Source: a virus. From it: a DNA stretch of 64,000 nt. Of this stretch, positions 8,829 to 62,284 are shown in pieces. Position numbers and translations under genes: made by a program. The stretch lies in the IMG/VR virus record IMGVR_UViG_3300040816_000831. One strand, 5' to 3'. A model generated the notes under the pieces. That model saw only the letters and a list, made by a program, of their open reading frames with translations, did no database searches and had not been told where the DNA came from. Position 1 is the first letter of the stretch; every line of letters starts with the position of its first letter.

Positions 8829-9140
8829 CTAAAACTGTACTGAGATACCACATCCACATGCTGATTTTTCAGCTGGATTAATTATTTTGAATTGCTCTTG
8901 TATTCCTTCGACGACGTAATCTAAGGTTGCCTTTTCAAGGTATGGCATGGAGAGGTCATCGATGAGAATGTGGAAGGAACCGTAGTCAAACACATGGTCG
9001 TTACCATTAATTTCGGATTCGTAAGCAAATATATATTCGAACCCAGCACAACCACCGCCAGTAAGACCAATCCTAATTTTATCCCGTTTTGCATTAGTTT
9101 TTGATATAAGTTTTTCAATTGCTGCATTTGTTATTTCCAT
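8829..9140 (-). CDS. iscA: Iron-sulfur cluster assembly A-type carrier IscA/HesB
   Basis: GGGCAGFEY and CGCGIS motifs. Confidence 0.92.
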   Translation of the reverse strand: MEITNAAIEKLISKTNAKRDKIRIGLTGGGCAGFEYIFAYESEINGNDHVFDYGSFHILIDDLSMPYLEKATLDYVVEGIQEQFKIINPAEKSACGCGISVQF

Positions 9141-9802
9141 TATGATATTGTAAATGTATGGTCTTTATTTTGATAGCTATCTCTTAATGTCCAATCACTA
9201 TTTTCTGATTTTATCCAATCAATATCAAAGAATGATAATTGGCCTTCAGTGTTTCCACCTAAAACAGTATCATATATAAATGTTTCACCATTTATCCAAT
9301 ACATATAATTATTAAAATCTTGTATAGTATCTGTTATATTAAATACATTCTTAACATCGTTTGTTATTTTTTCTTTTGAATACAAATTAAATATTAATTG
9401 ACCACCATCATTTAATAATGTTTTTAATTCTGTAATTGATTTTAAAATATATTCATAACTACAATGTGTAAAAATATTATGAGCAAATATAATATCATAT
9501 TTTGCTCCTATATGAGTAAAGTTTATTTTTTTATTACCTTCTGAATTATAAGATGGATGATATGCATTTAAACAAATAAAATTTTGACTTGGGTATAATC
9601 CTTTTAAGTCTTGTATAAATTCTTCTTGCACATCTACACCGGTGTATGTACAGTTTAAATCATCTGGAAATGATTTTATTAAATTGCCTGTATTACATCC
9701 AACATCTAATAATGTTTTTCCTTCAGCATCTACTTTAAGACAATGTTCATATAAATATTTTTTTCCTTGTGTACTTACTTTAAATCCTTTATCTTTAATC
9801 AT
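9140..9802 (-). CDS. Class I SAM-dependent methyltransferase
   Basis: LLDVGCNTG, TGVD, YDIIFAHNIFTH, LNDGG. Confidence 0.85.
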   Translation of the reverse strand: MIKDKGFKVSTQGKKYLYEHCLKVDAEGKTLLDVGCNTGNLIKSFPDDLNCTYTGVDVQEEFIQDLKGLYPSQNFICLNAYHPSYNSEGNKKINFTHIGAKYDIIFAHNIFTHCSYEYILKSITELKTLLNDGGQLIFNLYSKEKITNDVKNVFNITDTIQDFNNYMYWINGETFIYDTVLGGNTEGQLSFFDIDWIKSENSDWTLRDSYQNKDHTFTIS

Positions 9803-10251
9803 TCTGCTTCTCCGTACCAGTTCCACCTTCCATTTTCTGGTGGATTATTATGTCCTATCATTGAATCAGGTTCCCAATTTTCTATAGCTTTTTTAATTGC
9901 TTCTTCTGCTAAAACTGAACAATGTAATTTTATTGGAGGTAATTGAAGAGCATCAGCAATATCTTTATCTTTTATTTGTTTTGCTTCTTCAATAGTTTTA
10001 CCTTTTAACATTTCTACAAACATTGTACTTGATGCAATTGCTGAACCACAGCCATAAGTTTTGAACTTGACATCTTCTATGACATCTCCTTTCATTTTTA
10101 AATCTAATTTCATTACATCACCACAGGCTGGAGCACCAACCATTCCTGTTATAACTGTTTTATCATTAGGGTCAAATCTTCCAACAGAATGTTTAGCTGG
10201 ATTTGCCAATACTGATTCGAACCTATCTACTACTTCTTTACTATATGCCAT
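9799..10251 (-). CDS. iscU: Fe-S scaffold IscU
   Basis: MAYSKEV, GAPACGDVM, FKTYGCGSAIAS, LPPIKLHCS. Confidence 0.95.
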   Translation of the reverse strand: MAYSKEVVDRFESVLANPAKHSVGRFDPNDKTVITGMVGAPACGDVMKLDLKMKGDVIEDVKFKTYGCGSAIASSTMFVEMLKGKTIEEAKQIKDKDIADALQLPPIKLHCSVLAEEAIKKAIENWEPDSMIGHNNPPENGRWNWYGEAE

Positions 10252-10901
10252 TAATTACCTTGTGTTACTGATACTGAACAACCACCAACTGTATTACAAT
10301 TTTGTGTAAGTGAATATGCTTGATTTGTAGTACCTTGCTGTAGTAAATTTAAAGTTGTTTCTTCTGTTCCTTGAAGAACAACCTGTGCGTTATGATTTGC
10401 ATTACCCTTTTGCATGACATTTGCTATTGAACCGTCTGAAGTTCCATAAAAATAAACATGTGCATAATGACTACCAGTTCCTTCTTGCCATAAATCAACT
10501 TCTACATCGGCAACATGAACGTCCATATTAAATGTATGAGTTCCGTTTTGATATACATCAATAGTGTTATCATTATCCCATATATGTCTTCCGTATGTAG
10601 CACCACCACTTTGGTCAACATTTTCTACATTACCGGTACCATCTACATCACCACCCCAGGCTTTACCTGACCCCCAATAAGAAACCCAACCAATATAATT
10701 GTCATTACCTGTTTGATTAAAATTAAAGGTATTATTTGCATGGTCAAATGAAAAATTAATTTCATTACCAAATCCTATTTGAGATATAGTTAAATCTAAA
10801 TTATCACCACCTGAAAGTTGTTCAATGTGAATATGATTATCATCAGTAGGTCCAGCATATAACATTGATGCTAAAAAATATAATGGTAATAACTTATACA
10901 T
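10251..10901 (-). CDS. Curlin-like beta-repeat secreted protein
   Basis: Signal peptide; repeated Q-x-G-x-x-N units (QIGFGN, QTGNDN, QKGNAN, QQGTTN). Confidence 0.7.
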   Translation of the reverse strand: MYKLLPLYFLASMLYAGPTDDNHIHIEQLSGGDNLDLTISQIGFGNEINFSFDHANNTFNFNQTGNDNYIGWVSYWGSGKAWGGDVDGTGNVENVDQSGGATYGRHIWDNDNTIDVYQNGTHTFNMDVHVADVEVDLWQEGTGSHYAHVYFYGTSDGSIANVMQKGNANHNAQVVLQGTEETTLNLLQQGTTNQAYSLTQNCNTVGGCSVSVTQGN

Positions 10902-11018
10902 TTTTAATGCATTTCTCTGGATGCCAAGGCGCTATCCAGTACTTATATATTATTCTTTTTATTTGCGTAAACATATATTGTCTTTTTTCCAGTTGTGTAA
11001 ACTGAAACTAATAATTTC

Positions 11019-12176
11019 TTAGTTTCCTTGGTTGATGAAGATTTCAATTCCTTCTCCGCTTCCAAATGTTATTATTCCTTGGTAACCTTCCACATTTGTA
11101 TTTATAAATCCGTTACCACCAGATGCTATAGTTATATTTATAACACCATTAACTGTTCTATATAAAATTAAATTACCGTCTTCTTCAAAGATATTATATT
11201 GTGAATCCTTATTTAATCCAAAGTTACCGCCTTTTAATACCCAACCAGCACTTGAATCTCCACCTGCTTGAGCATCATCTAATGTTGCAGTTGTTCTTAC
11301 TAATTCCTCAACTACATCCAAAAGGTCTGGTAAAAAATCTCCAGCTAATGCATCGTAATTTAATCTATCTCTTGCATCGTAATCTTCATCTAAATAATCT
11401 TCTATATCTTTCTCCAATTCATTATATTCAAGGTAATCAATATCAAGTATTCCTTGGTCATCATCTAAATCATTCTGTACTTGTTCTTCAATCGCTTCTT
11501 TTACTTCTTGTGGAGGATTAACAATAAACATATTATCAATCATTGACGGAGTAATACCATTAATTTGTATAGGATTGGTTGGTATTTTATCCAATGATGA
11601 TACCATTGTTGCTTGGTAGGCTTGATTTAAAGTAATTGTACCACCTAAATTTGTTACTGTTATTTCACCTGATGGATTACCATATTGGTCAGGTAATAAA
11701 ACAATTAAGCTTCTACCTAATTCATCAATGGTTGTTGTAAAATCTGTTCCACGAATACCAATTGTGGCTGTAGGCGTTTGTATATCAATGTTTGCTTTAT
11801 TAATTAAACCAAGAGAACCTGAAGCAAATCTTGCTGTTCCCATAGTAAACTTCATTGACATTTTGGATAATGATGGGTCAGGGTCATAATATATTTCGTC
11901 TATTAATACCTCTGTATGTTCTTTTAAATCCAATTGAGCATTATCCAAAAACTCAATTTTCATTTTACCATTTGCTGTTTCTGCAATATCGTTTAGTTCT
12001 ACAGCTGGCATATACGCGCCAGATACTGTAATCTCTTCTTTATCTCTTATAATTTGACCTGAACCGGTCTGTTCAATCACTTCGCCGATGGGGTCGGCTA
12101 AGACCCCACCGATGAATAACAAATTAAGAATCGCTAGATGAATCTTTTTGATTGATTTGAATTGTTGCATTATCAC
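11019..12176 (-). CDS. FecR-domain secreted protein
   Basis: D...TANG...I.FLD...L, IQTPTATIGIRGTDF motif of FecR domains. Confidence 0.82.
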   Translation of the reverse strand: MIMQQFKSIKKIHLAILNLLFIGGVLADPIGEVIEQTGSGQIIRDKEEITVSGAYMPAVELNDIAETANGKMKIEFLDNAQLDLKEHTEVLIDEIYYDPDPSLSKMSMKFTMGTARFASGSLGLINKANIDIQTPTATIGIRGTDFTTTIDELGRSLIVLLPDQYGNPSGEITVTNLGGTITLNQAYQATMVSSLDKIPTNPIQINGITPSMIDNMFIVNPPQEVKEAIEEQVQNDLDDDQGILDIDYLEYNELEKDIEDYLDEDYDARDRLNYDALAGDFLPDLLDVVEELVRTTATLDDAQAGGDSSAGWVLKGGNFGLNKDSQYNIFEEDGNLILYRTVNGVINITIASGGNGFINTNVEGYQGIITFGSGEGIEIFINQGN

Positions 12177-12864
12177 TTGTAATATCCAAAGTTATTATTG
12201 CATTTGGTGAAACACATGCAACATCGTTACCTGCACAAGTACCAGATATTTGATTAATATCAATATCAGCACTATCACCATTTAATTCAACGGTCATTTC
12301 ATTAGCACCATCAGATTGTAATGTATTGATGTTATTAGAACTACCGGTTATGTCCCAATTCCATACAACGTCATCACTCTCCCAATCAACATCAAAGATG
12401 TTGTTGCTACCAATGAGTATTAAATCCGCATCCAATCTTTCTGCACTGTAAACATAACCTTGGTCTAAGTCAAAAGTATTACTACTTCCTGTTACGTCAA
12501 AGTTTATGTCTGAACTATCAGCACTTCCGATATATCCAATGTTCCAATCTATTTCGTTTGAATCGCCTGCAAAATCAAGCTTATAAGTTGAGCTATCTGC
12601 TACAACTGGTCCAAATAAAATATTTTGGTTCCCTGTGAAGTCCAAATCAAAGTTTAAGCTGGAACCTGTAATAGACATAGCTGAGCTACTTGATGAAAAA
12701 TCATCTCCGCCTATTTTGTTACCAAACCCTAATTGGTCTATATACAAACTGAGTGTATCACCAGATTGTAATATATTAACTTCGTTATCATCAGTGGCTT
12801 GTGCAAAAACGAATCCAGTCGACACTAATAGTCCAGATAGGACCACACTATATAGTTTATTCAT
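12124..12864 (-). CDS. Curlin-like beta-solenoid secreted protein
   Basis: Signal peptide ending AQA; ~23-residue G-x-x-N repeats (GNQN, GDSN, GSSN, GSNN, GSSN). Confidence 0.7.
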   Translation of the reverse strand: MNKLYSVVLSGLLVSTGFVFAQATDDNEVNILQSGDTLSLYIDQLGFGNKIGGDDFSSSSSAMSITGSSLNFDLDFTGNQNILFGPVVADSSTYKLDFAGDSNEIDWNIGYIGSADSSDINFDVTGSSNTFDLDQGYVYSAERLDADLILIGSNNIFDVDWESDDVVWNWDITGSSNNINTLQSDGANEMTVELNGDSADIDINQISGTCAGNDVACVSPNAIITLDITSDNATIQINQKDSSSDS

Positions 12865-13774
12865 TTTCGTTATACCCCTCGATTTCCCAATAACCACGTC
12901 TGTGGCCTTGGTAGATTAATTCCAGTACTCCAGCCTCAATGGCTGTTCGCACTGCGTAAGTCACCGACTCATTATTTCCAAGTCCGTCTTCAAACTCTAC
13001 TAATTGTGTTCCTTCTTCAATGTATTTAAATACATCGCCTCCAGTACCATAACTAAATACAGTTTTTCGAGTTTGTACATTTAATAATACTTCACCTGTT
13101 AGAACCGAAATGGCTCTCATACTTATTGTGACAACATCTTGACGATATTGTCTACTTACACCAACACCAAGAGTTCGTGCGCCTCGGCCTCCTGATTTAA
13201 TGTCAGTATCATAACCAATAATACCACCTTCAATAATTATTCCTGCGAATAAAAGTGGATTCAATTCTTGATATTTTTCTTGACCTTGCTTTTTAGCAAC
13301 ATCTTGTCTTGCACTTCGAATGATTTGTCGTTCTCTTACTAAATGGTCTATACCATTTCTTTCAACAACACGGAACCATGAATTTTGACCTGCAGTTTTT
13401 AAAGCATCAACTACCATTTCAACTCCACCTTGAGTTACGGCTGTTGAAAAATCTGCAATACCAGGTCTTGCTTTTCTTTGACCTGTTTTGTCTGTGAATT
13501 GATATACTGCAACCACTGGCATTTCTTTTGCTGGTGGTATTTCTAATAATTCAATATAGGAAGGCATTCTTACAACCTCTGGATTTTCTACACAAATATA
13601 TGGCATTGCTTTGGTAAAGATTCTACCAGATGCCTTTGCATAATTCCATACATCGTGGTTATATTCTGGTCCCCACATATTAGGATTACAATTTTGTGGT
13701 AATTCAGACCATTTTGGAACTGCTGCGCAACCTTGTAATAGTAATATTGCAGTTAAAAGATATTTAACCACCAT
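12857..13774 (-). CDS. csgG: Curli secretion channel CsgG
   Basis: Lipobox LQGC; AVYQFTDKTGQRK, STAVTQG, WFRVVER, ERQIIR, GGIIGYD. Confidence 0.92.
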   Translation of the reverse strand: MVVKYLLTAILLLQGCAAVPKWSELPQNCNPNMWGPEYNHDVWNYAKASGRIFTKAMPYICVENPEVVRMPSYIELLEIPPAKEMPVVAVYQFTDKTGQRKARPGIADFSTAVTQGGVEMVVDALKTAGQNSWFRVVERNGIDHLVRERQIIRSARQDVAKKQGQEKYQELNPLLFAGIIIEGGIIGYDTDIKSGGRGARTLGVGVSRQYRQDVVTISMRAISVLTGEVLLNVQTRKTVFSYGTGGDVFKYIEEGTQLVEFEDGLGNNESVTYAVRTAIEAGVLELIYQGHRRGYWEIEGYNENE

Positions 13775-14306
13775 CACCACCTGTGCCAGTATCAGGGTCT
13801 TGACCAAAATTGCCTGTTCCTACTGGTATTTCTATAACTGTTGTTGTACCTTCAGTATCAACAATTGTCATTTTAATAACATCAGTTCCTTCAGCATTAG
13901 TTATAACTTCCCATGTTATGATACTACCTTCAAGTGCAAATGAACCAAAGTTTGATGCAGTATCATTACTGAACATTGATTCAACTAATTGTTTTGATAA
14001 TTGAGCATAAATTCTACTTTCTAAGTTTCGAATAAACTTTGCAAGTGTTGTGTTTTCAGCTTCTCTTTGAGCGGCTTTTGCAGCAGAATCTAAAGCTTCT
14101 TGGATTGCTTTCTTTCTGCTATGTTCTTGGTTTTCAATAGTAAGATAGTGTGCACCTGTTCCTACACCACTGAATGATGGATTTTTAAATTCGTGCACGA
14201 TTGGAGATGCATTGGTATCTGGCGATACAGCCATAAGAGAAATTATGAATAAACTAGCTAGAGTTATTATTTCTGCTTGTTCTTTTATTTTTGTTTTTCT
14301 GCTCAT
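13764..14306 (-). CDS. csgF: Curli assembly component CsgF
   Basis: Signal peptide then FKNPSFSG; F..NLESRI..QLS; directly upstream of csgG. Confidence 0.82.
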   Translation of the reverse strand: MSRKTKIKEQAEIITLASLFIISLMAVSPDTNASPIVHEFKNPSFSGVGTGAHYLTIENQEHSRKKAIQEALDSAAKAAQREAENTTLAKFIRNLESRIYAQLSKQLVESMFSNDTASNFGSFALEGSIITWEVITNAEGTDVIKMTIVDTEGTTTVIEIPVGTGNFGQDPDTGTGGDGG

Positions 14307-44660: not shown

Positions 44661-44927
44661 TTATCTTCTCCTGGCTTTTGACGGCCTATTAAATGCATCT
44701 AGCATTCTTTGTTGTTTACGACTTCTAGAAACTGCTTCAGCTTTTTTTCTTTTCTTTTTAGCTGTAGGTTTTTCATAGAATTCTCTTTTGCGTACCTCTT
44801 GTACAATACCTGCGTTTTCACAGGCTTTTTTAAATCTTCTTAGACCAACATCAAAAGGCATTTCTTTTGATGGTCTTTTGTCTCTAGGATTTTTATTCTT
44901 CCTTGGACGTAAATCTATACTTGGCAT
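44661..44927 (-). CDS. rpsU: Ribosomal protein bS21
   Basis: [31 protein letters not shown]. Confidence 0.92.
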
Positions 44928-44956: not shown

Positions 44957-44985
44957 ATTATAACATAAAATCAGTGAGTTGTAAA
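44957..44985 (-). promoter_or_regulatory. Sigma70-like phage promoter
   Basis: TTTACA-N17-TATAAT upstream of rpsU. Confidence 0.7.
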
Positions 44986-46145
44986 CTGTTTTTTTCATAT
45001 TCATAGGTTCTTTTTTTATTATCCTGTATTAGGAATTTAGTATCAATCATTTCAAGCTGATTGTTTAAATATTTTTGAACCATTTTTGCAGCATGCTCTG
45101 CTGTAGTCACTGGCACATTTTGGCATATATGGTTAAGTGACCTTTTAGGTTCAAGCAATATAAAATCTTTTGGTAGTTTCATAAGAGATAAAGCTTCTCT
45201 TACTGTTAAGTATCTATCTTCATCCGGATGAGTTAAGCACGTTGGCATATGTCCAACAAATGCTCCTATTTTATCTTTAGGAATCTCTGTAGTTTTTCTC
45301 ATGATATTACCACCAGCTTTGAGCTTATGATATTGCCTATCGCATTTCTTTGCAACATTATCATATCCATTTTCTCTCATCCATTTAGCTACTTCTTTAT
45401 ATGTTGTTCTTTCTTCAATGTAGTCCATTGGGTTTGTTGTCTTTTCTATTTTATCTTGAAATTCACTATGTGATATACCACCTTCTAATACTTCAAGAAC
45501 ATATCGATAATATGGTTCTTCAGAAGGTTTCTTTTCATTACAAAGAATTTGACTCATTGGGTCATCATCTTTTCTTTCAACTTCTCTTATATCATCAGCA
45601 ATCATTGTAGGTCTTTCTAGTACATATTCAAATAATGGTACTTCATTACCTTTCCAAAAGAAATAGAATGTTCTATCTCGTACTTGGCTGAGTCCATGTA
45701 GTATAGATTTTGTTTTAAAGATACTAAAAGTATATCCATTATCTTCTCCTATCTTCCTCAATCTTCTTACAACGGGTTCTCCCATCTTACTTGCAAGCCT
45801 TGGTGCGTTCTCTCCCCAAAATACTTTTGGTTGTACTTCACTAAGTACATATTCAGCAGATGTAAACATCCATTCGTTCATAGGATTATTACTTGCAGCT
45901 GATGGACTAAGTGAGCTGAGCCCTGCACATGGGCATACAGTATTAATCACATTAACTTTTTCTGTGTAACTCGCTCCCTCTGAGAGGTTCAAATATGGGA
46001 CCTCATGGTTATAATGATTTAATAAGTGAGATTCATTAGCTTGAAAGCCTTCATATGTCATAATATACTTTGGTCTTTCTCCAAAGACATTTTCCATTGC
46101 TATTGTTTCTCCACCTATTAGTGGTACTATACTCGCATAACTCAT
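44958..46145 (-). CDS. Divergent DNA cytosine-C5 methyltransferase-fold protein
   Basis: Motif IV PCAGLS, VI EN, VIII Q.R.R, IX R.LTVRE; motif I is PLIGG instead of FxGxGG, motif X is CQNV. Confidence 0.75.
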   Translation of the reverse strand: MSYASIVPLIGGETIAMENVFGERPKYIMTYEGFQANESHLLNHYNHEVPYLNLSEGASYTEKVNVINTVCPCAGLSSLSPSAASNNPMNEWMFTSAEYVLSEVQPKVFWGENAPRLASKMGEPVVRRLRKIGEDNGYTFSIFKTKSILHGLSQVRDRTFYFFWKGNEVPLFEYVLERPTMIADDIREVERKDDDPMSQILCNEKKPSEEPYYRYVLEVLEGGISHSEFQDKIEKTTNPMDYIEERTTYKEVAKWMRENGYDNVAKKCDRQYHKLKAGGNIMRKTTEIPKDKIGAFVGHMPTCLTHPDEDRYLTVREALSLMKLPKDFILLEPKRSLNHICQNVPVTTAEHAAKMVQKYLNNQLEMIDTKFLIQDNKKRTYEYEKNSLQLTDFML

Positions 46146-47122
46146 GCAAAAAACTCCTCTAGTCCAGCCTTTTCAATTCCATTCCAATATGGATAGAACT
46201 CTCTGGATAAATGTATTGATTGTGGTTTCTCCATATATTTAAAATCGAGCTTACCTTCTTTATTAAAGAGATGACCGGTCCATCTTTTGATACCGTATTC
46301 TTTCTCTATGTAATCGTTAAATTTATTTCTTGCATCATTTCTTTCTGACCAAGAACCGTAAAATGGTTGTCCTTTATAATATCCTGATTGCGGTATTCTT
46401 CTACTTACATCTTCTATTGGAAGCAACTCATATATCTTTGCATTATACTTATGAGCTTCTTCAATATACCTATCAGCTAAATCTTCTATCTTTTGTCCTA
46501 GTCTAATTACATGATGTCTTATATCAATATTACCAAAATAGCATTCAAGCTCTTCATAATCGTAAGGAATGTATTTATCAAATCCTTCGTTTAAAGCTCC
46601 ATTTAAAGTTTTGAATGGAACACTGTTTACTGTCCAACCTGGTCGATACATGCAGATGGAATGACTATCACCAATAACTATTTTAGAAGTTGGATTAGGA
46701 TAGTCGATTCTTTCAGCTTCATTAAACATGCGTTCTAGATTTTTAAGGTCTACATCATGCCATTCCGGTTGAACCTCTTTCTTAGCCGATTCCAGTTTTG
46801 ATTTAACCATTTCGTGATACGGCGGGAAGTCGATTCCAATTGAAAAGACTCTGCCTTTGAACTTAGAAAAGTTGACAGTGTTCTTAACATAAGGAAAACC
46901 GTATACGCCACCAAACATATTAATTCCACCACTCCAATCAGTGCCGTGATAGACCCAAAGACTATCATAATCATTGTGGTCTTCAATTTCTCCACCGTAG
47001 TTAACATCGCAGTTTCCATATTTCTCCTTTATCATATCGCCATACATTACTCCTGCAGCTCCTCTATGAGAAGCAGCTCTCTTAGCTATTGGAATAAATG
47101 GACAATTAATTATATTTTTCAT
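46142..47122 (-). CDS. SGNH-like hydrolase/acyltransferase
   Basis: IGDSH, FGNID, C-terminal SIHLS. Confidence 0.5.
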   Translation of the reverse strand: MKNIINCPFIPIAKRAASHRGAAGVMYGDMIKEKYGNCDVNYGGEIEDHNDYDSLWVYHGTDWSGGINMFGGVYGFPYVKNTVNFSKFKGRVFSIGIDFPPYHEMVKSKLESAKKEVQPEWHDVDLKNLERMFNEAERIDYPNPTSKIVIGDSHSICMYRPGWTVNSVPFKTLNGALNEGFDKYIPYDYEELECYFGNIDIRHHVIRLGQKIEDLADRYIEEAHKYNAKIYELLPIEDVSRRIPQSGYYKGQPFYGSWSERNDARNKFNDYIEKEYGIKRWTGHLFNKEGKLDFKYMEKPQSIHLSREFYPYWNGIEKAGLEEFFA

Positions 47123-47129
47123 TAGATAT

Positions 47130-47158
47130 ATTATACCATACTTTTGTTCAAATGTAAA
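47130..47158 (-). promoter_or_regulatory. Sigma70-like phage promoter
   Basis: TTTACA-N17-TATAAT. Confidence 0.75.
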
Positions 47159-47163
47159 CGTTT

Positions 47164-48228
47164 TTATTCAAAGAATTCACTAAGGGTATTAGTCTTTTGT
47201 ACGCGCGCCACGCGTCTACGCGCGCATGCTCGCTCGTCTTCTCTTATCTGTAGGTATACACCAAACTGACATGACAACACTTCAGTTCCGTAGTATTTAA
47301 GAGAATCTTGTTCATATTGAAATAATTTACTACCGTCTTTCTTATTTATATTGAAAGCTTTTGGATGAAATACAACATCTTTTGTTAATCCTATTTCATC
47401 TGAATTTTCTCTCATATAGTATATTGCTTCGTCATACAATTTCTTTGGAGCTTCTGGCCACATTAATTGTATTGTATACACAGCTCCTGGACCCGGCGAT
47501 ACAAATCTTTGGTCATGATGATACTTCATTTGTGGTAATACAGATGAAGAAGCAGCTCCATGGAATCCGTAATAATGTCCTATGCCAGGTTGTTCTCTTA
47601 AAAGAGTATAAATCTCTGACATATGATTACATTGTTGCATTCGTTCTAAGAAACCAGTATCTCTAAAAGAAGATACCCATTCACAAACATCAACTGCATG
47701 AAACTTTCTATCTGGTTCGTTATACTTTTCACGACAATAGTTTCTAGCAGCAGTTTGTATAGATGTGTGTAATTCTGTTGTTCCCCAAATTGGTTGCTTA
47801 TTCTTTATTGCTTTATCTAAATTATTACGAACATATTGAATATAATCTTTATTTCCATTTGCTATTCTATCAAAATCAACAAAGACGTTATCTTCTCCTG
47901 AAGCAAGAAAATGAACTCCTCTTCCACCATAGAAATGAGATATAAAAGTATTACCTACAATATTCATTATTGTAGTATCTAGACTTGCTATCTCTTGACC
48001 AATAAATCTCATACGGTCATCAAGTGTAATTGTTGGATGAAAATATTCTACATCTTCGCCAAGACCAAAATCATTCTTGCCATGACGATTTACTGATTCA
48101 TATTGTTCTTTTGAATATCCAAGTTGTATATTAGACCTTTCATTAACTTTATATAGAAACCAATTGAACTCTTTCATGAGTTCTTTATCGTAATTCGACC
48201 AATCGTAATTATATTTAGTACTTGACAC
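47164..48228 (-). CDS. aGPT-Pplase/amino acid:DNA transferase-like helical (HhH glycosylase-related) DNA modification protein
   Basis: F....ER, DDR, L...PGIG.Y, FV.PGPGA, E...CQF..Y motif series. Confidence 0.6.
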   Translation of the reverse strand: MSSTKYNYDWSNYDKELMKEFNWFLYKVNERSNIQLGYSKEQYESVNRHGKNDFGLGEDVEYFHPTITLDDRMRFIGQEIASLDTTIMNIVGNTFISHFYGGRGVHFLASGEDNVFVDFDRIANGNKDYIQYVRNNLDKAIKNKQPIWGTTELHTSIQTAARNYCREKYNEPDRKFHAVDVCEWVSSFRDTGFLERMQQCNHMSEIYTLLREQPGIGHYYGFHGAASSSVLPQMKYHHDQRFVSPGPGAVYTIQLMWPEAPKKLYDEAIYYMRENSDEIGLTKDVVFHPKAFNINKKDGSKLFQYEQDSLKYYGTEVLSCQFGVYLQIREDERACARRRVARVQKTNTLSEFFE

Positions 48229-48628
48229 GTTCCTCGTTATCTCTCTTTAAATGAACAATTGATATATCAGGACATCTTTTTTTAATCTCTTTGATTTGAA
48301 TTGGGTCATCTTCGAAATGCATTTCTATTTCTACTCCCAAGTCTTTTAACATATTAATCATTTGTCCTTTAAAGATACCAGAAGCTTTTCTGCCATATAG
48401 TGGATTTTCTTTTACTCCATGAGTCACTTTATGATTTTTTAGTTTTCTTTCAAGTGGATTCATGTAAAGAGTATTATATATTCCTCTAGATTCTAGCATT
48501 TTTACTGTAGCTTCTCTATCAGCAAAAGGCCGCCCAGTAATGATGATGTCATCTTTACCGGGTCTTACGCCTGTGGTGCTTTCACCAAAATAGATTACTC
48601 CATCGATGTCAAACGAATTAATTTTCAT
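48215..48628 (-). CDS. HAD phosphatase
   Basis: FDIDGV, ITGR, K, FEDD; coupled to inositol-phosphate synthase. Confidence 0.8.
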   Translation of the reverse strand: MKINSFDIDGVIYFGESTTGVRPGKDDIIITGRPFADREATVKMLESRGIYNTLYMNPLERKLKNHKVTHGVKENPLYGRKASGIFKGQMINMLKDLGVEIEMHFEDDPIQIKEIKKRCPDISIVHLKRDNEERVKY

Positions 48629-49910
48629 AATCATTCTTCGCATCTTGGAAGGTGTGAGGCAAATCTGCTGCCTTCGGTCTATTCTCTTTGAGCTGTGGAG
48701 TAGTAATATCTGTCAATACTCTCCTAGCTAAAGCATCACATTCAAATTTGGCATCTTGAGTTTTGAGCTGTAATGGAGGAGTCTTTTGAGTCCATGCTGA
48801 TGGTCCTCTTAAATATCCTACAATGCCCATCTCTGAAGCTACCTTACAAAATCTAATTGCTGAAACAACAACTCCACCAGAGTTTGGAGAGTCTTGAACT
48901 GAAAGTCTAGCTGACATTTCATATCTTGCTCCTGCAAATCCATAAGCAACCATATCAAAGTTAGCTATTTTATTATCAGATGAGATATAATCTCCACCTG
49001 GTTTTTGTTGAACAGTAAGAGATGGACCAGCAAATAATGTCATACCTGCAGTTGATTCTCCTCTTACGCTGTTTTGTCCTTTTAAAACATTTTCTTTTGA
49101 TACATGTTTGTTATGTAATCTATATTGTTTTGCCATATTCAAGAAGTCAGTATTTGCTGTTCTTCCTGTTCTTATATGCTCTTGTCCTTGTGTAGAACCA
49201 GCAGCCATATTCATTTGAATGTGTTGTGTTACCATTAAACCTGAATCTAACATAGCACCTTGTAGAACTTCTGACATTCTTGAAGCTCCCCAGGCTGACC
49301 TCATATCTGAACCAACAATTGTAAGTCCTGCATCTATGAATCTTTGTTCAGTTATCATAGCATCTTCTGTTGAAATCAATGTCGGTATACAGTTTACGAA
49401 ATGTATTCCTGCATCTAACGCAACATCAATCCAGTATTTAGAAGCTTCTTCTGAACCAACTGGTAAATAGTTAATGAGTACATCTACATCATGATACTGT
49501 AGTAACTCAACAGTTCTTTCAAAAGATTCTGCTGGTACAGCTCCATTTACAAATGTGACTTCATCTGGATAATCATGCATGTGAGGAGCTATTCCGTCCA
49601 TTTCTGGAGCTGAATAGACCATTGCATCATTATTTACAGCTGAACTATTTGATGTAGTTGTTATTTTTTCGACATGGTCCATAGCGCAATTAGGTTGAGC
49701 TCTTAAAGCTTTTGCTAATTTTTTATTTACTTTCCTTTTATCGATATCAAATCCAATAACAAACTCGATGTCGTGTACTGAATATCCGCCGATATCTTCA
49801 TACATTAGACCAATTTTGTCTTCTGGATTTTCGTTATAATATTGTACACCTTCCACTAAAGACTTTGCACAACTTCCGACGCCGATTATTCCGGCTTTTA
49901 TTTTTGACAT
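48618..49910 (-). CDS. ino1: myo-Inositol-1-phosphate synthase
   Basis: GVGSCA..LV.GV.YY, INYLPVGSEEA, FVNCIP, NTDFLNM, GPS, L.V.DSPNSGG. Confidence 0.92.
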   Translation of the reverse strand: MSKIKAGIIGVGSCAKSLVEGVQYYNENPEDKIGLMYEDIGGYSVHDIEFVIGFDIDKRKVNKKLAKALRAQPNCAMDHVEKITTTSNSSAVNNDAMVYSAPEMDGIAPHMHDYPDEVTFVNGAVPAESFERTVELLQYHDVDVLINYLPVGSEEASKYWIDVALDAGIHFVNCIPTLISTEDAMITEQRFIDAGLTIVGSDMRSAWGASRMSEVLQGAMLDSGLMVTQHIQMNMAAGSTQGQEHIRTGRTANTDFLNMAKQYRLHNKHVSKENVLKGQNSVRGESTAGMTLFAGPSLTVQQKPGGDYISSDNKIANFDMVAYGFAGARYEMSARLSVQDSPNSGGVVVSAIRFCKVASEMGIVGYLRGPSAWTQKTPPLQLKTQDAKFECDALARRVLTDITTPQLKENRPKAADLPHTFQDAKNDYEN

Positions 49911-49974: not shown

Positions 49975-50278
49975 ATATACTATTAGTTATAACACTTATC
50001 AGACCACTTCCAAGGATAATGACTGCTGCTGTGTTTAAAATTATCAATGCTCTATCTTTCCAGATAAGAGCTACTATTAACCAACCGAATGTTCCAACTA
50101 AGGAAAACGCTTGGTCATAGAGAGCAAGGTCAGGATTAGACCTGCTTGCCATAGCAATTAAAAGAATAGCTGATGCTACCCATTTAATATACCAATCAAT
50201 TGTATACTTAGGAGTTGCGCTCTTAAATATACGCTTTGAATTTTTTATTTCTTGTTCGTTAAATTTCGGTGAATTCAT
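49973..50278 (-). CDS. Small three-TM membrane protein
   Basis: WYIKW...GW..V...W.DRALI.LN. Confidence 0.7.
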   Translation of the reverse strand: MNSPKFNEQEIKNSKRIFKSATPKYTIDWYIKWVASAILLIAMASRSNPDLALYDQAFSLVGTFGWLIVALIWKDRALIILNTAAVIILGSGLISVITNSI

Positions 50279-50699
50279 ATTTTACATTAGCCTCTTTAAA
50301 TATTTCATGTGTTTTTTCTATTGCTTCTTTCCATCTATCTGGAGTATTTTCTGAAAGCGATACAACTCTAGATATTCCTGCTTGTATTATACCTAATGAG
50401 CAATGACCACAAACTGGTAAACCATAAATATATAATATAGAATCTTTTAAAGATATTCCATTTTCTGCAGCATTATATATACAATTCATTTCTGCATGAA
50501 CTACATATTGATACTTTGTTTCTCTATGATTATATCTTTCTTTACTATCTTCAATACCTTTAGGAAATCCATTATATCCTGTTGCTAATATTTTTCTATC
50601 TCTTACAGCAATTGCACCTATTTTTCTACTTGGGTCTTTACTCCATGTAGATATTTCACGAGCAATATCAAGAAATCTTTTATCCCACTTATTTAACAA
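50259..50699 (-). CDS. cd: dCMP deaminase (start approximate)
   Basis: SKDPS, TGYNGFP, HAEMN, P.C..C. Confidence 0.9.
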   Translation of the reverse strand: MLNKWDKRFLDIAREISTWSKDPSRKIGAIAVRDRKILATGYNGFPKGIEDSKERYNHRETKYQYVVHAEMNCIYNAAENGISLKDSILYIYGLPVCGHCSLGIIQAGISRVVSLSENTPDRWKEAIEKTHEIFKEANVKYEFTEI

Positions 50700-51366
50700 G
50701 GTCAAAGTGCCTCTCATACACATGTAAGTTTTGTACTTGCCAATAAATTTTACCACCACTTTTAAGTGGATGACCATTATAGTATAAATCTTTTTCTAGT
50801 TTTTCTAATACGTATTTTTGCCAAGCGTAATCATTTCGATAACCATATACAACGTCATTACTTCTCATTTGAACTACACAATGTAATTGTTCATCTCTTA
50901 TATAATATGTAACAGCATTTGTACAAATAAAATCATTCTTACCATCTTCTTTAAATTCGCGCCAGATACTTGGTCTTTGATATACCATTGAAGCTCTACG
51001 AGAATCTGGATTAATTTCACTTAGTTCTTTTACTACTTGATTATATTGTCTATGAAATTTTTTACTGAATATAAGATGACCATAATTAGAATTGATTTCA
51101 CCATAATCATTTGCAGAATATTCCCATGCTGCTGGCGACTTACCATATATTTCAGCAAGTTTATTAATATTAGTTGACCTAGAATTATACCATTCTATTT
51201 CAGCATCAATATATTCTTGATTGGGTTTACCAAAAATTGATGGCTTATCTGCTAGAAAAGACGCAGCAAATATTTCGATTGTTTTACAACCAGTCTTATC
51301 ATCGGTAAACTCTTTGTTTTTAAGTTTATCGATAAACGTATTTGCGATATCTTTAGTCTTCAACAT
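50689..51366 (-). CDS. 42: dCMP hydroxymethylase (thymidylate synthase fold, T4 gp42 type)
   Basis: INSNYG, SRR, RPS, DFICTN, MRSNDVVYGYRNDYAW (Asp at the dCMP-specificity position), LHVYERHF. Confidence 0.88.
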   Translation of the reverse strand: MLKTKDIANTFIDKLKNKEFTDDKTGCKTIEIFAASFLADKPSIFGKPNQEYIDAEIEWYNSRSTNINKLAEIYGKSPAAWEYSANDYGEINSNYGHLIFSKKFHRQYNQVVKELSEINPDSRRASMVYQRPSIWREFKEDGKNDFICTNAVTYYIRDEQLHCVVQMRSNDVVYGYRNDYAWQKYVLEKLEKDLYYNGHPLKSGGKIYWQVQNLHVYERHFDLVK

Positions 51367-51682
51367 TACTTACCTTTTTGTTGAACATATCTCTTGTTGG
51401 GTCTTGGCCTTCCATTTTACCTCGAGCATAAGCAACAGCAAAAGAACAATAGTTAATCATATCTTTATAAGTATCTTCAATACTTTCGAAGTTTGGGTCA
51501 TCGGCTGATTCAAGCAATGAAGTTGCTCTCATCATTTTACCAAGAATAATATCATGAATCGTATCAATGCCACGTCTATAATGCATGGCTTGGACTACTG
51601 TTGATTCAGAACTTTGATAGTCTTGGGATTTTTTAGTTTGTAGTTCTGCGCATTCTTGCAGGACTCTTAAGCTTTCTTTCAT
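51353..51682 (-). CDS. Nucleotide-modification-associated helical protein (Nmad1/DUF1599-like)
   Basis: KK..DY, K..R, ESIEDT..D.INY. Confidence 0.7.
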   Translation of the reverse strand: MKESLRVLQECAELQTKKSQDYQSSESTVVQAMHYRRGIDTIHDIILGKMMRATSLLESADDPNFESIEDTYKDMINYCSFAVAYARGKMEGQDPTRDMFNKKVSNVED

Positions 51683-51711: not shown

Positions 51712-51740
51712 ATTATATCATACTTTTGGTTAAATGTAAA
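51712..51740 (-). promoter_or_regulatory. Sigma70-like phage promoter heading the modification operon
   Basis: TTTACA-N17-TATAAT. Confidence 0.75.
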
Positions 51741-55013: not shown

Positions 55014-55586
55014 TTAATCCCAATTAATTGCAGGTATTTGTCCATAAAATCCTTGAGTTGCTTTTAATTGAGTAGGAAAATATTTAGAAAGCTTCTCAAT
55101 ATCTCCATGATCGTAATTTAATTTAGGCAATCTTGCCTCTTTCTTTTGAACTATAACAGATACATCATATCCATAAGTTCTCACAGCTGCATCTGAACAG
55201 TCAAATCCAGCTAATATAAGATTATATAATAATAATCCTGCATTCCATAATGAAACATGTCCACCAACAATATTGTGTCTAAGTGGTGGAACAGATATTG
55301 CAAGAATTCCATTTGTATCTATAAGATGAAATATCTTACTTAAAAAATGATGTACATTCAATTGATGTTCAAGTGTATGTGCACACCAAACACAATCAAA
55401 ATTTCTATCAAAGTCGATTGTATTAAAATCACCTTGATAATCTGATTCGAGTATATCTGTTGTATAAACTTTTTTACCTCTTTCTTTAAACATATTAGAA
55501 AACTTTCCATCACCTGCGCCAACATCAAGTACTGAATTAAATTGAAAATCTGTTACTAACTTTTCAAAGGTGAGTAAACTTCTCAT
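55014..55586 (-). CDS. Class I SAM-dependent methyltransferase
   Basis: VLDVGAGDG, FD.VW..HTLEH, G.LAI.VP. Confidence 0.85.
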   Translation of the reverse strand: MRSLLTFEKLVTDFQFNSVLDVGAGDGKFSNMFKERGKKVYTTDILESDYQGDFNTIDFDRNFDCVWCAHTLEHQLNVHHFLSKIFHLIDTNGILAISVPPLRHNIVGGHVSLWNAGLLLYNLILAGFDCSDAAVRTYGYDVSVIVQKKEARLPKLNYDHGDIEKLSKYFPTQLKATQGFYGQIPAINWD

Positions 55587-58114
55587 CCGAAAAAATCCTC
55601 CAGGCTTGCAACTTCTTTCGAAGTCCAACCTACTGCTTCCAAGACCGGTTCAATAGGATCGAGGAATGTTTTTTGAAACTGTGTTTCATGGTCGATGTAT
55701 TTTCTTAAGCCAAACTCATCTGGAAGATAAGATGGGAAAGCAATTACATTTTCATGAATTGAATTTGGTTGACGAAGATATATGAACTTAATCTTTTCGC
55801 CATTGTTTATAAGTTCGTATTTCTTTTTAAGCTGATTGTCTTCAATTAGTTTATTGTAAAGAATAGCTCCACGAACATGTATAGGCGTTCCTTTTTTATA
55901 GAGGGTATTTCTATCTTGGAACTTTTTAACTTGAGTCACTCCGCGCGGAAATGCAATCTGGTCAGGTTCAAGAGTTTTGAAATAGTTCTTAAACTGTTCG
56001 ATAGCTTGTTGAACTGTATTTTCATCTTCTTTCATTATGACTTTGAATATATTTTTAAGAGCATCACGACATGGTTCAGGTGTAGAAGACTTAATTGCTT
56101 CAATACCCATAATCTTAAGCTTTGGCTCGGCATATCTCACGCCTTCGTTATCATGTACATTCATAATATATCTTTTCTTTGCAGTCCAAAGCGCACGGTC
56201 AGCGATTGCTTCACGTTTCATAACCATACGATTATCTACTCCACCAAGATACTTATACAATTGCTCATAAGACTTTTCAAGCTCTGGTTCAAGCGCTTCA
56301 CTAGCAACTTTATCTAGAAAGTCGATTGTATTTTCAGGTTTGAATTTTTGTACAAAGTCGTTTAAGCATACATACAGCGAGTCTGTGTCGATAGCAATAA
56401 CATAGTCTTTCCATTTTTCAGGTTTGAGCACTCTATTGAGATAGGTGTTAAGCGAATATTCGGCCCATCGAATTGTAAGTTGTCCGGTGAGGGTAATTGC
56501 TTCTGCGATTCTCTGGTCAAAGAATCGAAAATAGCGATTGCCAAGAGCGCCATACAAACTGTTAAGAAGAATCTTAATAGCCATTTGTCTGTTTTCGGCA
56601 ATTGCAATATCTCTTTCAATTTGATATAATTTTTGTTTGTCATTTTTATCTACCTTTTCTTTTTCTTTTTGAGCGTTAATCATTTCTTGTTTAATACCAA
56701 CACGCTCTTTATACATCTCATCGATAATGAATGGTATTATACCTGGCTTATCTACATTAAAATATTGTCCATTAGCTGCAAGAGCTTTACCTTTATTAGG
56801 AGCGATACGATGTTCGCTTATAGCACTATCAATATCGAATTGAGCAATCTCTCCATTAGCAATCGTTTCAGGCGACATATTGTATTGCATAATGATTGAT
56901 GGATAGAGAGAGTTTAAGTCAAAAGAAACAACGTTATCATGTATTCCTACTTGTGGGTCTTTAACAAAGCCACCTGGATAGTTAGACTTTACTTTATCTT
57001 CAACGAAAGGTATAGCAATATTGTTTGCAAATAATCTGCGATAGATAATCGTATCCCATATCATTGTAGTACCGAATGTATCGTTATAGTTAACGCCAGC
57101 TTTATATGCCATTGTCATACAAAGAGTAATCAATCCAAGCTTATCTTCGATTTTGTCGACAAGCTCAACGTCTTTGATATTATAGTCAATAAACTTTTGG
57201 TGATTATGCTTGTAAAGAGTATGAAGATTCGAATACTCATCATAAGATAGTTTCTTTTCTCCTAACACGACATGAGCAATGTTATCAAGTTTATAAGATT
57301 CTTGTGGTCCATAAGAATAACCAAACTTCTTAAATAGGTCGAGGTAATCAAGTTGAGATATACCTTTAAGTTCATAAGCAGTTTGAGTCCTTCCCATCTT
57401 AGTTACGTCTTGTCTATCAATCATTCCCCAAGGACTGAGTCTTTTTACGTAAGCTTCTCCAAGCATACGATTGATTCTATTCACAAGGTATGGAATATCA
57501 AAGAACCTTGAATTCCAGCCAGTCACGACATCAGGACAATATTGTTGAGATGACCAATGAGTAATAAAATTAATAAGCAAGTCATCTTCACGGTCAAACT
57601 TACGATATACTACCATGTGGTCTTTCATATAAGATTTGTCAGTATCATAATCACCTAAGCCCCAGACATAATAAGTATTGCCAATATTGTTTTTCATACA
57701 AATGGCTGTAATCTTATGGTCGGCTTTTTCAGGCTCAGGGAATCCATCGTCAGAAGCAACTTCAATATCAATTGTTGATACGTTGATTTTGTTTCGATCG
57801 AATTCGATATTACCAGGATAGTAATCATTAATGAATGCTGGAACGTACTTTGTGTTTCCATATATCTTTTTACCAGATACGCCTTTATTAGCTTGAACAT
57901 ACTCGTTAGCAGTTCTCATGGATTCGAACCTTTTGCCAGCATTTGCTACACCTACAGGATTTCCATCAAGCGATTTCCACTTGGTAGGAAGATTGGTAGA
58001 TGTAAAAAGGATTGGTTCGTATTTGACTTTCTTTTCAATTCGTCTTCCGTGGTCATATCCTCGTAAGAGAATCATATTACCATATCGAGACACATTAGTA
58101 TAGAATTTCATCAT
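55583..58114 (-). CDS. 43: DNA polymerase B gp43
   Basis: DIEV, YN..DV, DLNSLYPSII, K...NS.YG, DTDS, KKRY. Confidence 0.97.
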   Translation of the reverse strand: MMKFYTNVSRYGNMILLRGYDHGRRIEKKVKYEPILFTSTNLPTKWKSLDGNPVGVANAGKRFESMRTANEYVQANKGVSGKKIYGNTKYVPAFINDYYPGNIEFDRNKINVSTIDIEVASDDGFPEPEKADHKITAICMKNNIGNTYYVWGLGDYDTDKSYMKDHMVVYRKFDREDDLLINFITHWSSQQYCPDVVTGWNSRFFDIPYLVNRINRMLGEAYVKRLSPWGMIDRQDVTKMGRTQTAYELKGISQLDYLDLFKKFGYSYGPQESYKLDNIAHVVLGEKKLSYDEYSNLHTLYKHNHQKFIDYNIKDVELVDKIEDKLGLITLCMTMAYKAGVNYNDTFGTTMIWDTIIYRRLFANNIAIPFVEDKVKSNYPGGFVKDPQVGIHDNVVSFDLNSLYPSIIMQYNMSPETIANGEIAQFDIDSAISEHRIAPNKGKALAANGQYFNVDKPGIIPFIIDEMYKERVGIKQEMINAQKEKEKVDKNDKQKLYQIERDIAIAENRQMAIKILLNSLYGALGNRYFRFFDQRIAEAITLTGQLTIRWAEYSLNTYLNRVLKPEKWKDYVIAIDTDSLYVCLNDFVQKFKPENTIDFLDKVASEALEPELEKSYEQLYKYLGGVDNRMVMKREAIADRALWTAKKRYIMNVHDNEGVRYAEPKLKIMGIEAIKSSTPEPCRDALKNIFKVIMKEDENTVQQAIEQFKNYFKTLEPDQIAFPRGVTQVKKFQDRNTLYKKGTPIHVRGAILYNKLIEDNQLKKKYELINNGEKIKFIYLRQPNSIHENVIAFPSYLPDEFGLRKYIDHETQFQKTFLDPIEPVLEAVGWTSKEVASLEDFFG

Positions 58115-61609: not shown

Positions 61610-61617
61610 TATTTATA
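61610..61617 (-). promoter_or_regulatory. T4-type late promoter TATAAATA
   Basis: Overlaps gp45 stop; followed by a structured leader. Confidence 0.55.
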
Positions 61618-62284
61618 CATCGTAGCTTGAGTTTTTCTCAAGAGCGATAAAGTAATCCACTGGGTAGTTACTATTAGTCCAGTTAGAGATAAGCTTTGAG
61701 CTAATGCTTACAAAGTAATCTCCTGGTAGTAACTTCAAGTTGGGTATACTTACCACGAAGTTAAACTCATTTTTACATGAGTTGTCTTTATCTAGTTCAA
61801 TCTCAAATAAGTTTGAAGTCGAGTCTCTTGTATCGAGTACAGAGGCTGTAATAACTCCAGAATTACCTGTGATTGCTAGTTCAGTATGACCAAGAACAGC
61901 AGCAGCTTTACGAATCTGATTTAGTTTATCTTCTTCGATATTAACTCCAACTTCTGGTTCTGGCATCTGAATATCTTTTTGAGGAGTGGTTAGGATATCG
62001 CTTTCAGAAAAGAAATATCTTATCTTTTGTCCACTACCTTGTACCAATACTGCTTTATCTTCAAACTCTAATGTAGGATTATCGATAAGACTTAAGACTG
62101 ATAAGAATTCGTTTAAGTCATAGACTCCGAATTCTTTAGGAAAGTCTTCCACTATTTCAGCAGAAGCTAGAATAGTTTTGGACTCTGAAATAGTCTTCAG
62201 TTTTTGTCCTGGTTTGAAAACAATATTTGGATTTATTGTTGCGAAGTTTTTTAACACATTCAAGGTGTCTGTTGATAAGTTCAT
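61613..62284 (-). CDS. 45: Sliding clamp gp45
   Basis: LKNFATIN, FGVYDLNEFL, NLKLLPGDY, YFIALE. Confidence 0.95.
   Translation of the reverse strand: MNLSTDTLNVLKNFATINPNIVFKPGQKLKTISESKTILASAEIVEDFPKEFGVYDLNEFLSVLSLIDNPTLEFEDKAVLVQGSGQKIRYFFSESDILTTPQKDIQMPEPEVGVNIEEDKLNQIRKAAAVLGHTELAITGNSGVITASVLDTRDSTSNLFEIELDKDNSCKNEFNFVVSIPNLKLLPGDYFVSISSKLISNWTNSNYPVDYFIALEKNSSYDV

Follow-up and report, generated by a model that had tools for sequence, protein, structure and literature searches.

Without their cofactor S-adenosylmethionine (SAM), canonical C5-cytosine methyltransferases (C5-MTs) carry out reactions other than methylation in vitro: M.SssI couples thiols to 5-hydroxymethylcytosine (hmC), M.MpeI removes the hydroxymethyl group and M.HhaI adds formaldehyde to cytosine, making hmC (PMC7176277, PMC11347137). 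A non-methyl reaction feeding hypermodification is described for CmoX, a phage DNA cytosine C5-carboxymethyltransferase (PMC12783734). Phages with modified cytosines are marked by a thymidylate synthase (TS) homologue with two characteristic Asp residues (Asp/Asp) together with a deaminase and a pyrophosphatase (10.1101/2024.12.05.627091; PMC13326640). Here, we analysed a C5-MT-like open reading frame (ORF) at positions 44958–46145 of the IMG/VR virus record IMGVR_UViG_3300040816_000831 (64,000 nt; this whole stretch is called the window), which comes from a T4-like phage that is marine and uncultured. All window features given below lie on the minus strand. The 395-aa product is part of a distinct, abundant phage clade of the C5-MT fold, and this clade is a fixed part of hmC gene islands in aquatic T4-like and TIM5-like phages. 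The original prediction, made from the sequence, had proposed an enzyme with intact catalytic motifs and an altered SAM-binding motif that acts on hmC. Its chemical premise, that C5-MTs without SAM act on hmC in vitro, is documented in the two papers cited first.

The ORF starts with an ATG that shares bases with the stop codon of its upstream neighbour (ATGA). The Pfam family PF00145 matched the protein with E 1.6e-15 and 57.9 bits (cut-off: 22), at residues 59–357 only, and the TIGR00675 score was 37.3 bits, far under the cut-off of 100.65. Residues 1–58 were matched by no C5-MT profile (Pfam, TIGR00675). The AlphaFold2 model, based on a 123-sequence family alignment, reached a pLDDT of 96.5. 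Over its whole length, it superposed on M.HaeIII (1dct_A; Z 25.8, root mean square deviation 3.1 Å, 279 residues) and on M.HhaI (Z 25.5), with model residue 1 corresponding to HhaI residue 12. The deviations of the two superpositions were 3.1–3.3 Å across 279–296 residues. Foldseek matched the model to the C5-MT fold with E 1e-12.

The catalytic motifs were found as originally predicted, with PC in motif IV, EN in motif VI and QxRxR in motif VIII. Motif IV reads CPCAGLS (residues 71–77; 45915–45935) and carries the catalytic Cys73, with the usual PCQ changed to PCA. Motif VI is ENAP (residues 112–115; 45801–45812), motif VIII is QVRDR (residues 154–158; 45672–45686) and motif IX is RYLTVREALSLMKLPKDF (residues 311–328; 45162–45215; from the sequence and a profile alignment). 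Conservation was counted in an alignment of 131 sequences, comprising 129 full-length family representatives at 50% identity, the query and the copy of cyanophage S-TIM5. Cys73 was present in 130 of these, and Glu112, Arg156 and Arg158 were each present in all 131. The C5-MT fold is intact, and so are the residues that serve base flipping and covalent catalysis (Cys73, Glu112, Arg156, Arg158).

The cofactor side is different. Motif I reads SIVPLIGG (residues 5–12; 46110–46133), with Leu9 for the first Gly of FxGxGG and Val7 for Phe, and motif X reads CQNVP (residues 341–345; 45111–45125), with Gln342 for Asn304 and Asn343 for Ser305 of HhaI. Profile alignments placed Cys341-Gln342-Asn343 on Gly-Asn-Ala/Ser of M.HaeIII and M.HhaI, and Val7-Pro8-Leu9-Ile10-Gly11-Gly12 on Phe-Ala-Gly-Ile-Gly-Gly of Dcm, in agreement with the structural register. 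When the family was aligned with hhalign to the single Dcm sequence, only motifs IV–VIII were aligned; a loose setting gave a full-length alignment, which we relied on for motifs I and X and not for motif II. The search for Dcm homologues returned close enterobacterial copies only and added little. Matches of the family profile to the PDB started at profile positions 38–64. The non-canonical reading of motifs I (SIVPLIGG) and X (CQNV) in the original prediction thus held in both sequence and profile alignments.

Motif II was located from the model, in which strand beta2 comprises residues 28–30 of the segment IMTYEGF (residues 28–34; 46044–46064; predicted secondary structure and column counts). 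Of the 131 sequences, 128 have Ser or Thr at position 30; position 32 shows no conservation. In the model, Ser/Thr30 would occupy the site of the ribose-binding Glu and Tyr/Phe/Trp31 that of the stacking aromatic residue; the residues compared are Glu40-Trp41 in HhaI and Glu47-Phe48 in CmoX (PMC12783734). The changes in the pocket cluster on the side of the ribose, the methionine and the methyl group: Gly is replaced by Leu, Glu by Ser/Thr, PCQ by PCA, Asn by Gln and Ser by Asn. The protein is a member of the C5-MT fold superfamily that lacks three of its defining cofactor motifs, and these replacements suggest that it may have lost the binding or use of SAM.

The variant motifs were conserved throughout the family. 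In motif I, P8 was found in 126, L9 in 124, G11 in 127 and G12 in 124 of the 131 sequences, and in motif X, Q342 in 128 and N343 in 124. The other pocket columns gave similar counts (S/T30: 128, F34: 122, N37: 123, D/E38: 128, A74: 110, N90: 125 and W92: 106 of 131). Each non-canonical pocket residue was at least 80% conserved, on a level with the catalytic residues, and these positions were invariant among the 118 close relatives. The N-terminal zone and the zone of motifs IX–X were about equally constrained (top-residue frequency 0.48 vs 0.53). The most variable region is the equivalent of the target recognition domain (TRD), which is helical and near-constant in length (134–166 residues). 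The copy of S-TIM5, only 30% identical, has IIPLVGG, PPCAGLS, ENAP and CQNVP. Because PLxGG, Ser/Thr30, PCA and Gln342-Asn343 are ~95% conserved across the 131 sequences, the variant motifs are a family signature and not erosion or chance. As judged from these columns, the cofactor-side pocket is rebuilt but conserved and under selection. The SAM-binding motif is indeed altered, as had been predicted, but it is not degraded: a conserved alternative is in its place.

The family is large and common in ocean and lake viromes. In an exhaustive search, 770 representatives (50% identity) were obtained, and 255 of these had E ≤ 1e-30; a word-based search, which scored length-matched candidates, yielded 2,516 clusters at 90% identity with E ≤ 1e-3. 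The 122 representatives in alignment A1 were 27–58% identical to the query. Two lineages carry two tandem paralogues (L089–L092 and L175), e.g. at L089:5951-8321 and L175:10001-12434; the carriers are freshwater and marine relatives. At L089, one paralogue is typical (PLIGG, PPCAGLS, CQNVP) and the other is more divergent (PLCGG, PLCSGLS, GQTVP). Moreover, there are long relatives of 598–1462 aa with the full PLxGG/CPCAGLS/ENAP/QNVP signature (P0200, P0197, P0165 and P0188; loci L176, L006 and L094). A zf-CXXC finger is fused to one of these proteins. Of four that were looked up, three were on short marine metagenome or metatranscriptome contigs, with too little sequence for a readable gene context, and the long and CXXC-fused relatives may come from eukaryotes or giant viruses.

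The gene neighbourhood links the family to hmC metabolism. The gp42-type deoxycytidylate (dCMP) hydroxymethylase of the window (50689–51366; RSNDVVYGYRND) has Asp at the equivalents of ThyA-169 and ThyA-177. Its match to T4 gp42 had E 1e-67, with the catalytic Cys and the dCMP-selecting Asp179 kept, which bears out the predicted substitution of C5 in this genome. The enzyme is flanked by an Nmad1/DUF1599 protein, the first gene of the island (51353–51682), and a dCMP deaminase (50259–50777). Since the TS homologue keeps Asp at the ThyA-169 equivalent, a 5-hydroxycytosine pathway was rejected (PMC13326640).

We collected 175 loci with a family member; scans with P0148 and P0170 gave zero and one loci, respectively. 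A TS homologue was found upstream in 49 of the 50 loci having at least 7 kb of upstream sequence, and all 84 readable TS motifs were Asp/Asp. The order at related loci was constant: Nmad1, gp42-type TS, dCMP deaminase, a variable decorating module and the C5-MT-like gene. The linkage spans several lineages from marine and freshwater samples. In S-TIM5, a myovirus of a different lineage, an Asp/Asp 'ThyA' lies three genes from the family gene, and relatives of S-TIM5 have been drawn with a DNA alpha-glucosyltransferase (alpha-GT) (PMC10087341). In Pseudoalteromonas phage XG4, the family gene is paired with an Asp/Asp TS homologue and glycosyltransferase (GT)-like genes. The link to the dCMP-hydroxymethylase/deaminase/Nmad1 cassette is near-obligate, whatever sugar or cyclitol module is present. 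No Tet_JBP match was found in the annotated contexts or in five carrier records, where the control genomes of the record search were silent too. At a locus of a distant relative (L007:678-1451), a gene of the metallo-beta-lactamase fold of the Apyc1 (anti-Pycsar) type lies just upstream of the C5-MT-like gene.

The decorating module, unlike the cassette, is swappable. In the window, it is of the inositol-phosphate-synthase/kinase-like type, with a myo-inositol-1-phosphate-synthase-like protein (48618–49910; PF01658, E 2.5e-7), a protein resembling a 5-hydroxymethyldeoxyuridine DNA kinase (HMUDK_hel; 47164–48228; E 1.2e-11) and a fusion of a beta-GT-N-like domain with an SGNH domain (46142–47122), the SGNH chimera, whose gene is the translationally coupled upstream neighbour of the C5-MT-like gene. 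Relatives have instead a DNA alpha-glucosyltransferase and an epimerase (with or without UDP-glucose dehydrogenase), a TAGT, a cytidylyltransferase with an epimerase and UDP-galactopyranose mutase, or a nucleotidyltransferase-kinase with a HAD protein and GT-B-like proteins; a pentose-type and a galactofuranose-type module are among these. In total, the family gene adjoins at least five different decorating modules, and one short contig of 5 kb (L004) has none beside it.

The role of the family gene should accordingly be independent of the decoration. A specific inositol-coupling role is unlikely because the module is swappable, and a dedicated inositol-coupling enzyme was rejected, since the gene persists with other modules. 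Installation of the inositol-type group by this enzyme is not supported, given at least five different module types and better candidates in the island itself. Candidates for the coupling step are the SGNH chimera and the HMUDK-like protein. The best match of chimera residues 1–144 was the N-terminal acceptor/DNA domain of T4 beta-GT (1c3j_A; Z 7.2, a middling value), and this domain also had a sub-threshold PF09198 match. Residues 145–313 have an SGNH/GDSL fold with GDSHS (Z 9.9; model of medium quality, pLDDT 73.6). The chimera gene sits in the slot of T4 beta-gt. PHROG 17781 (795 positions) spans both the SGNH chimera (positions 1–334) and the HMUDK-like protein (426–559); therefore, fused versions of the two exist in other phages.

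The C-terminus of the protein may point to the replication machinery. Its tail LQLTDFML (44961–44984) is like the tail SLEDFFG of the phage DNA polymerase (gp43), and two neighbouring enzymes end in GLEEFFA (the SGNH chimera) and TLSEFFE. A strict LxxF[FLMIV] motif followed by 0–2 residues was present at the C-terminus of 23 of the 129 representatives, vs 0.3 expected from internal positions, and a looser motif was present in 42 vs 5 expected. The proposed docking partner is the sliding clamp gp45 (61613–62284; PF09116). A precedent for clamp association is T4 alpha-GT, which co-purifies with gp45 (PMC13216743).

A sigma70-type promoter-like site (TTTACA-17-TATAAT with TG; 47130–47158; consensus match only) precedes the SGNH-chimera gene and the C5-MT-like gene, which is consistent with early expression of the latter. 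Near-identical sites lie at 51740–51712, 47158–47130 and 44985–44957 and head the island, the SGNH/C5-MT-like pair and bS21–uvsX, respectively. The third is located inside the last codons of the C5-MT-like ORF.

We favour the explanation, with a probability of roughly 40%, that the protein is a replication-coupled enzyme with covalent Cys-C6 catalysis on 5-substituted cytosine and not an ordinary SAM methylase. Because C5 is occupied and the contacts to the methionine and ribose of SAM are replaced, the enzyme would not carry out plain methyl transfer. What we infer for its clamp docking, substrate and reaction is as follows. The protein would be made early and dock on gp45 via the LxxF tail. 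It would then act on newly replicated phage DNA, flipping out 5-substituted cytosines, and Cys73 would attack C6 of the flipped base. The reaction itself may take place at the 5-methylene, where the hydroxyl or hydroxymethyl group would be exchanged or removed via an exocyclic-methylene intermediate. The second substrate would probably be a common cellular metabolite and not the inositol-type product of the window's island. By analogy, the SAM-free in vitro reactions of the canonical enzymes may serve as a chemical precedent for such action. The most specific form of this proposal, a SAM-independent enzyme of the C5-MT fold that rides on the sliding clamp and uses Cys-C6 catalysis to substitute at the 5-methylene of hmC, is rather unlikely.

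Several observations weigh against this explanation. Locus L003 has 8 kb of upstream sequence without a TS gene, and the phages that provided the linked loci are related, so that these loci do not count as independent samples. Full replacement of cytosine by hmC in the window's phage is itself something that we infer. The occlusion of the SAM site would follow from sequence and secondary structure only, and the family retains features compatible with an adenosyl group, namely GG at the start of helix A, the aromatic residue at position 31 and Asp55. Asp55, which follows strand beta3, is present in 89 of 131 sequences; the query and 92 of the 118 close relatives have Ser instead. The complex prediction for three copies of gp45 and residues 340–395 was weak, at 0.37 vs 0.00 for the best control, and a pass at this level is more likely to be false than true if the interaction was not already probable; the pLDDT of the partner was 37–40 and the run agreement was at least 45%. 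Finally, the CXXC-fused and possibly eukaryotic relatives suggest an activity on ordinary cytosine DNA.

The alternative that survives best is an ordinary SAM-dependent DNA C5-MT with a divergent motif I, which we consider somewhat unlikely. Its targets would be cytosines that escape replacement, specific sites or host DNA, and it would provide a second line of protection. The protein passes the gathering score of PF00145, but it scores far under the cut-off of TIGR00675. The superposition on M.HaeIII and M.HhaI includes the entire fold from residue 1 onward, and many family members have GG, an aromatic residue at position 31 and Asp55. However, 124 of 131 sequences have Leu in place of the Gly that is otherwise the best conserved in the SAM loop, beta2 does not end in a conserved acidic residue, the family has other residues for Asn304 and Ser305, and position 55 is Ser instead of Asp in the query and most of its close relatives. 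The variability of the TRD equivalent and the tandem paralogues, which look like methylases of differing specificity, fit this alternative, as do the CXXC-fused relatives on short marine metagenome contigs. The near-obligate link to a pathway that removes the substrate is hard to explain in this way.

It is improbable that the protein is a transferase with a SAM analogue or a different one-carbon donor. Examples would be an alkyl transfer like that of CmoX or a post-replicative hydroxymethylation of residual cytosine with formaldehyde or folate; M.HhaI makes hmC with formaldehyde in vitro. CmoX (8YF3) was the only PDB match of the protein by single sequence, with a weak E-value. It changes the Gln of PCQ (to Ser) and Asn304 (to Arg), fitting a larger group (PMC12783734), and the same two positions are changed here, to Ala74 and Gln342. 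Nevertheless, there is neither an SPPC motif nor an Arg at the Asn304 position, the C5-MT fold has no known folate-binding feature and transfer onto C5 would still require a free C5. No cmoA was found among the ten window ORFs scanned against NCBIfam; a class I methylase gene at 9140–9826 had weak UbiG/CmoB-like matches only. A non-catalytic hmC-DNA binder or base flipper (a chaperone, regulator or anti-restriction shield) that merely keeps the fold would fit the altered cofactor motifs and the inactive C5-MT homologues known in phage TET clusters (PMC8256090), but it is very improbable, as Cys73 in 130 and Glu112, Arg156 and Arg158 in all 131 sequences would be unexpected in a mere binder.

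The window is AT-rich (~33% GC), nearly all ORFs of at least 90 aa are on the minus strand and the gene order is of the T4 type: gp45, gp44, gp43, the modification island, bS21, UvsX and a DnaB-type helicase. A DNA search of the region against known phages gave no close match among the deposited phages. The island consists of Nmad1/DUF1599, the gp42-type hydroxymethylase, dCMP deaminase, DUF6552, the inositol-1-phosphate-synthase-like protein, a small protein that has no Pfam match, the HMUDK-like protein, the two-domain SGNH protein and the C5-MT-like gene, followed by bS21 and UvsX. The gene of ribosomal protein bS21 (44661–44927; PF01165, E 2.8e-17), between the C5-MT-like gene and uvsX, is found in the close clade and is absent in relatives at ~62% identity. 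Two further genes have a class I methyltransferase fold: the one at 9140–9826 lies beside iscU, and the one at 55014–55628 (Methyltransf_23/11 match) is located just downstream of the gene for the DNA polymerase. No match to CmoA was obtained for either. The window also carries curli-type genes (10251–13807) with a CsgG homologue (E 8e-51) and CsgA-like repeats.

We found no paper describing the PLxGG clade or its link to gp42-type islands. The databases label the family as site-specific DNA-cytosine methylase, yet nearly all phages that carry it have cytosines already substituted at C5. If the enzyme acts on hmC, it would be a missing enzymatic step, perhaps towards an unknown base, in phage DNA hypermodification and a ready-made tool for hmC-specific DNA labelling. 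If this chemistry is SAM-free, the 'atypical' reactions, which have been observed only in vitro with canonical enzymes to date, would have a counterpart in vivo. It would also mean a new class of DNA-modifying enzymes and, possibly, that abundant aquatic phages have a cytosine modification not described before. If the protein is a plain methylase, the SAM loop of canonical C5-MTs is far more replaceable than assumed, and hmC phages still need 5-methylcytosine (5mC). Cultured carriers of the family gene are S-TIM5 and vB_Psh_XG4.

Among the known systems, the family resembles the type II bacterial enzymes M.HaeIII and M.HhaI (PF00145). It shares with them the two-domain fold and motifs IV (PC), VI (EN), VIII (QxRxR) and IX. 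It differs in its PLxGG motif I, the absence of the motif II Glu, PCA for PCQ and CQNVP, and its TRD equivalent is helical. Moreover, it has no partner restriction enzyme, the gene is located in an hmC island and many members have a clamp-type C-terminal tail.

CmoX (8YF3; Z 23.6 to the model) is likewise a phage enzyme of the C5-MT fold with changes at the PCQ Gln and Asn304 positions. However, CmoX retains the Phe, Glu and Asp contacts to adenosine, SPPC, Arg350 and its dependence on a neighbouring CmoA, none of which was found for the 395-aa protein. At the CmoX-specific positions, it has VCPC instead of SPPC and Gln342 instead of Arg. Membership of the CmoX group was rejected, as SPPC and an equivalent of Arg350 are absent and CmoA was not found; no NCBIfam model match to CmoA was obtained in the ten window ORFs scanned, of which three were island genes.

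The C5-MTs of TET/5mYOX clusters are also marine phage genes beside TAGT glycosyltransferases in cytosine hypermodification islands (PMC8256090). They make 5mC at GpC for oxidation by TET (PMC8256090), whereas here hmC comes from the gp42-type nucleotide pathway. The alpha-GT and beta-GT of T4 are similar in that the gene of a post-replicative enzyme for hmC-DNA lies between uvsX and gene 42; their fold and chemistry are unrelated. Eukaryotic DNMT1 is tethered to the sliding clamp during replication. It has the C5-MT fold (Z ~25), and a CXXC finger is present in some relatives of the 395-aa protein. Unlike the family described here, DNMT1 keeps the canonical SAM motifs, and its substrate is unmodified hemimethylated CpG.

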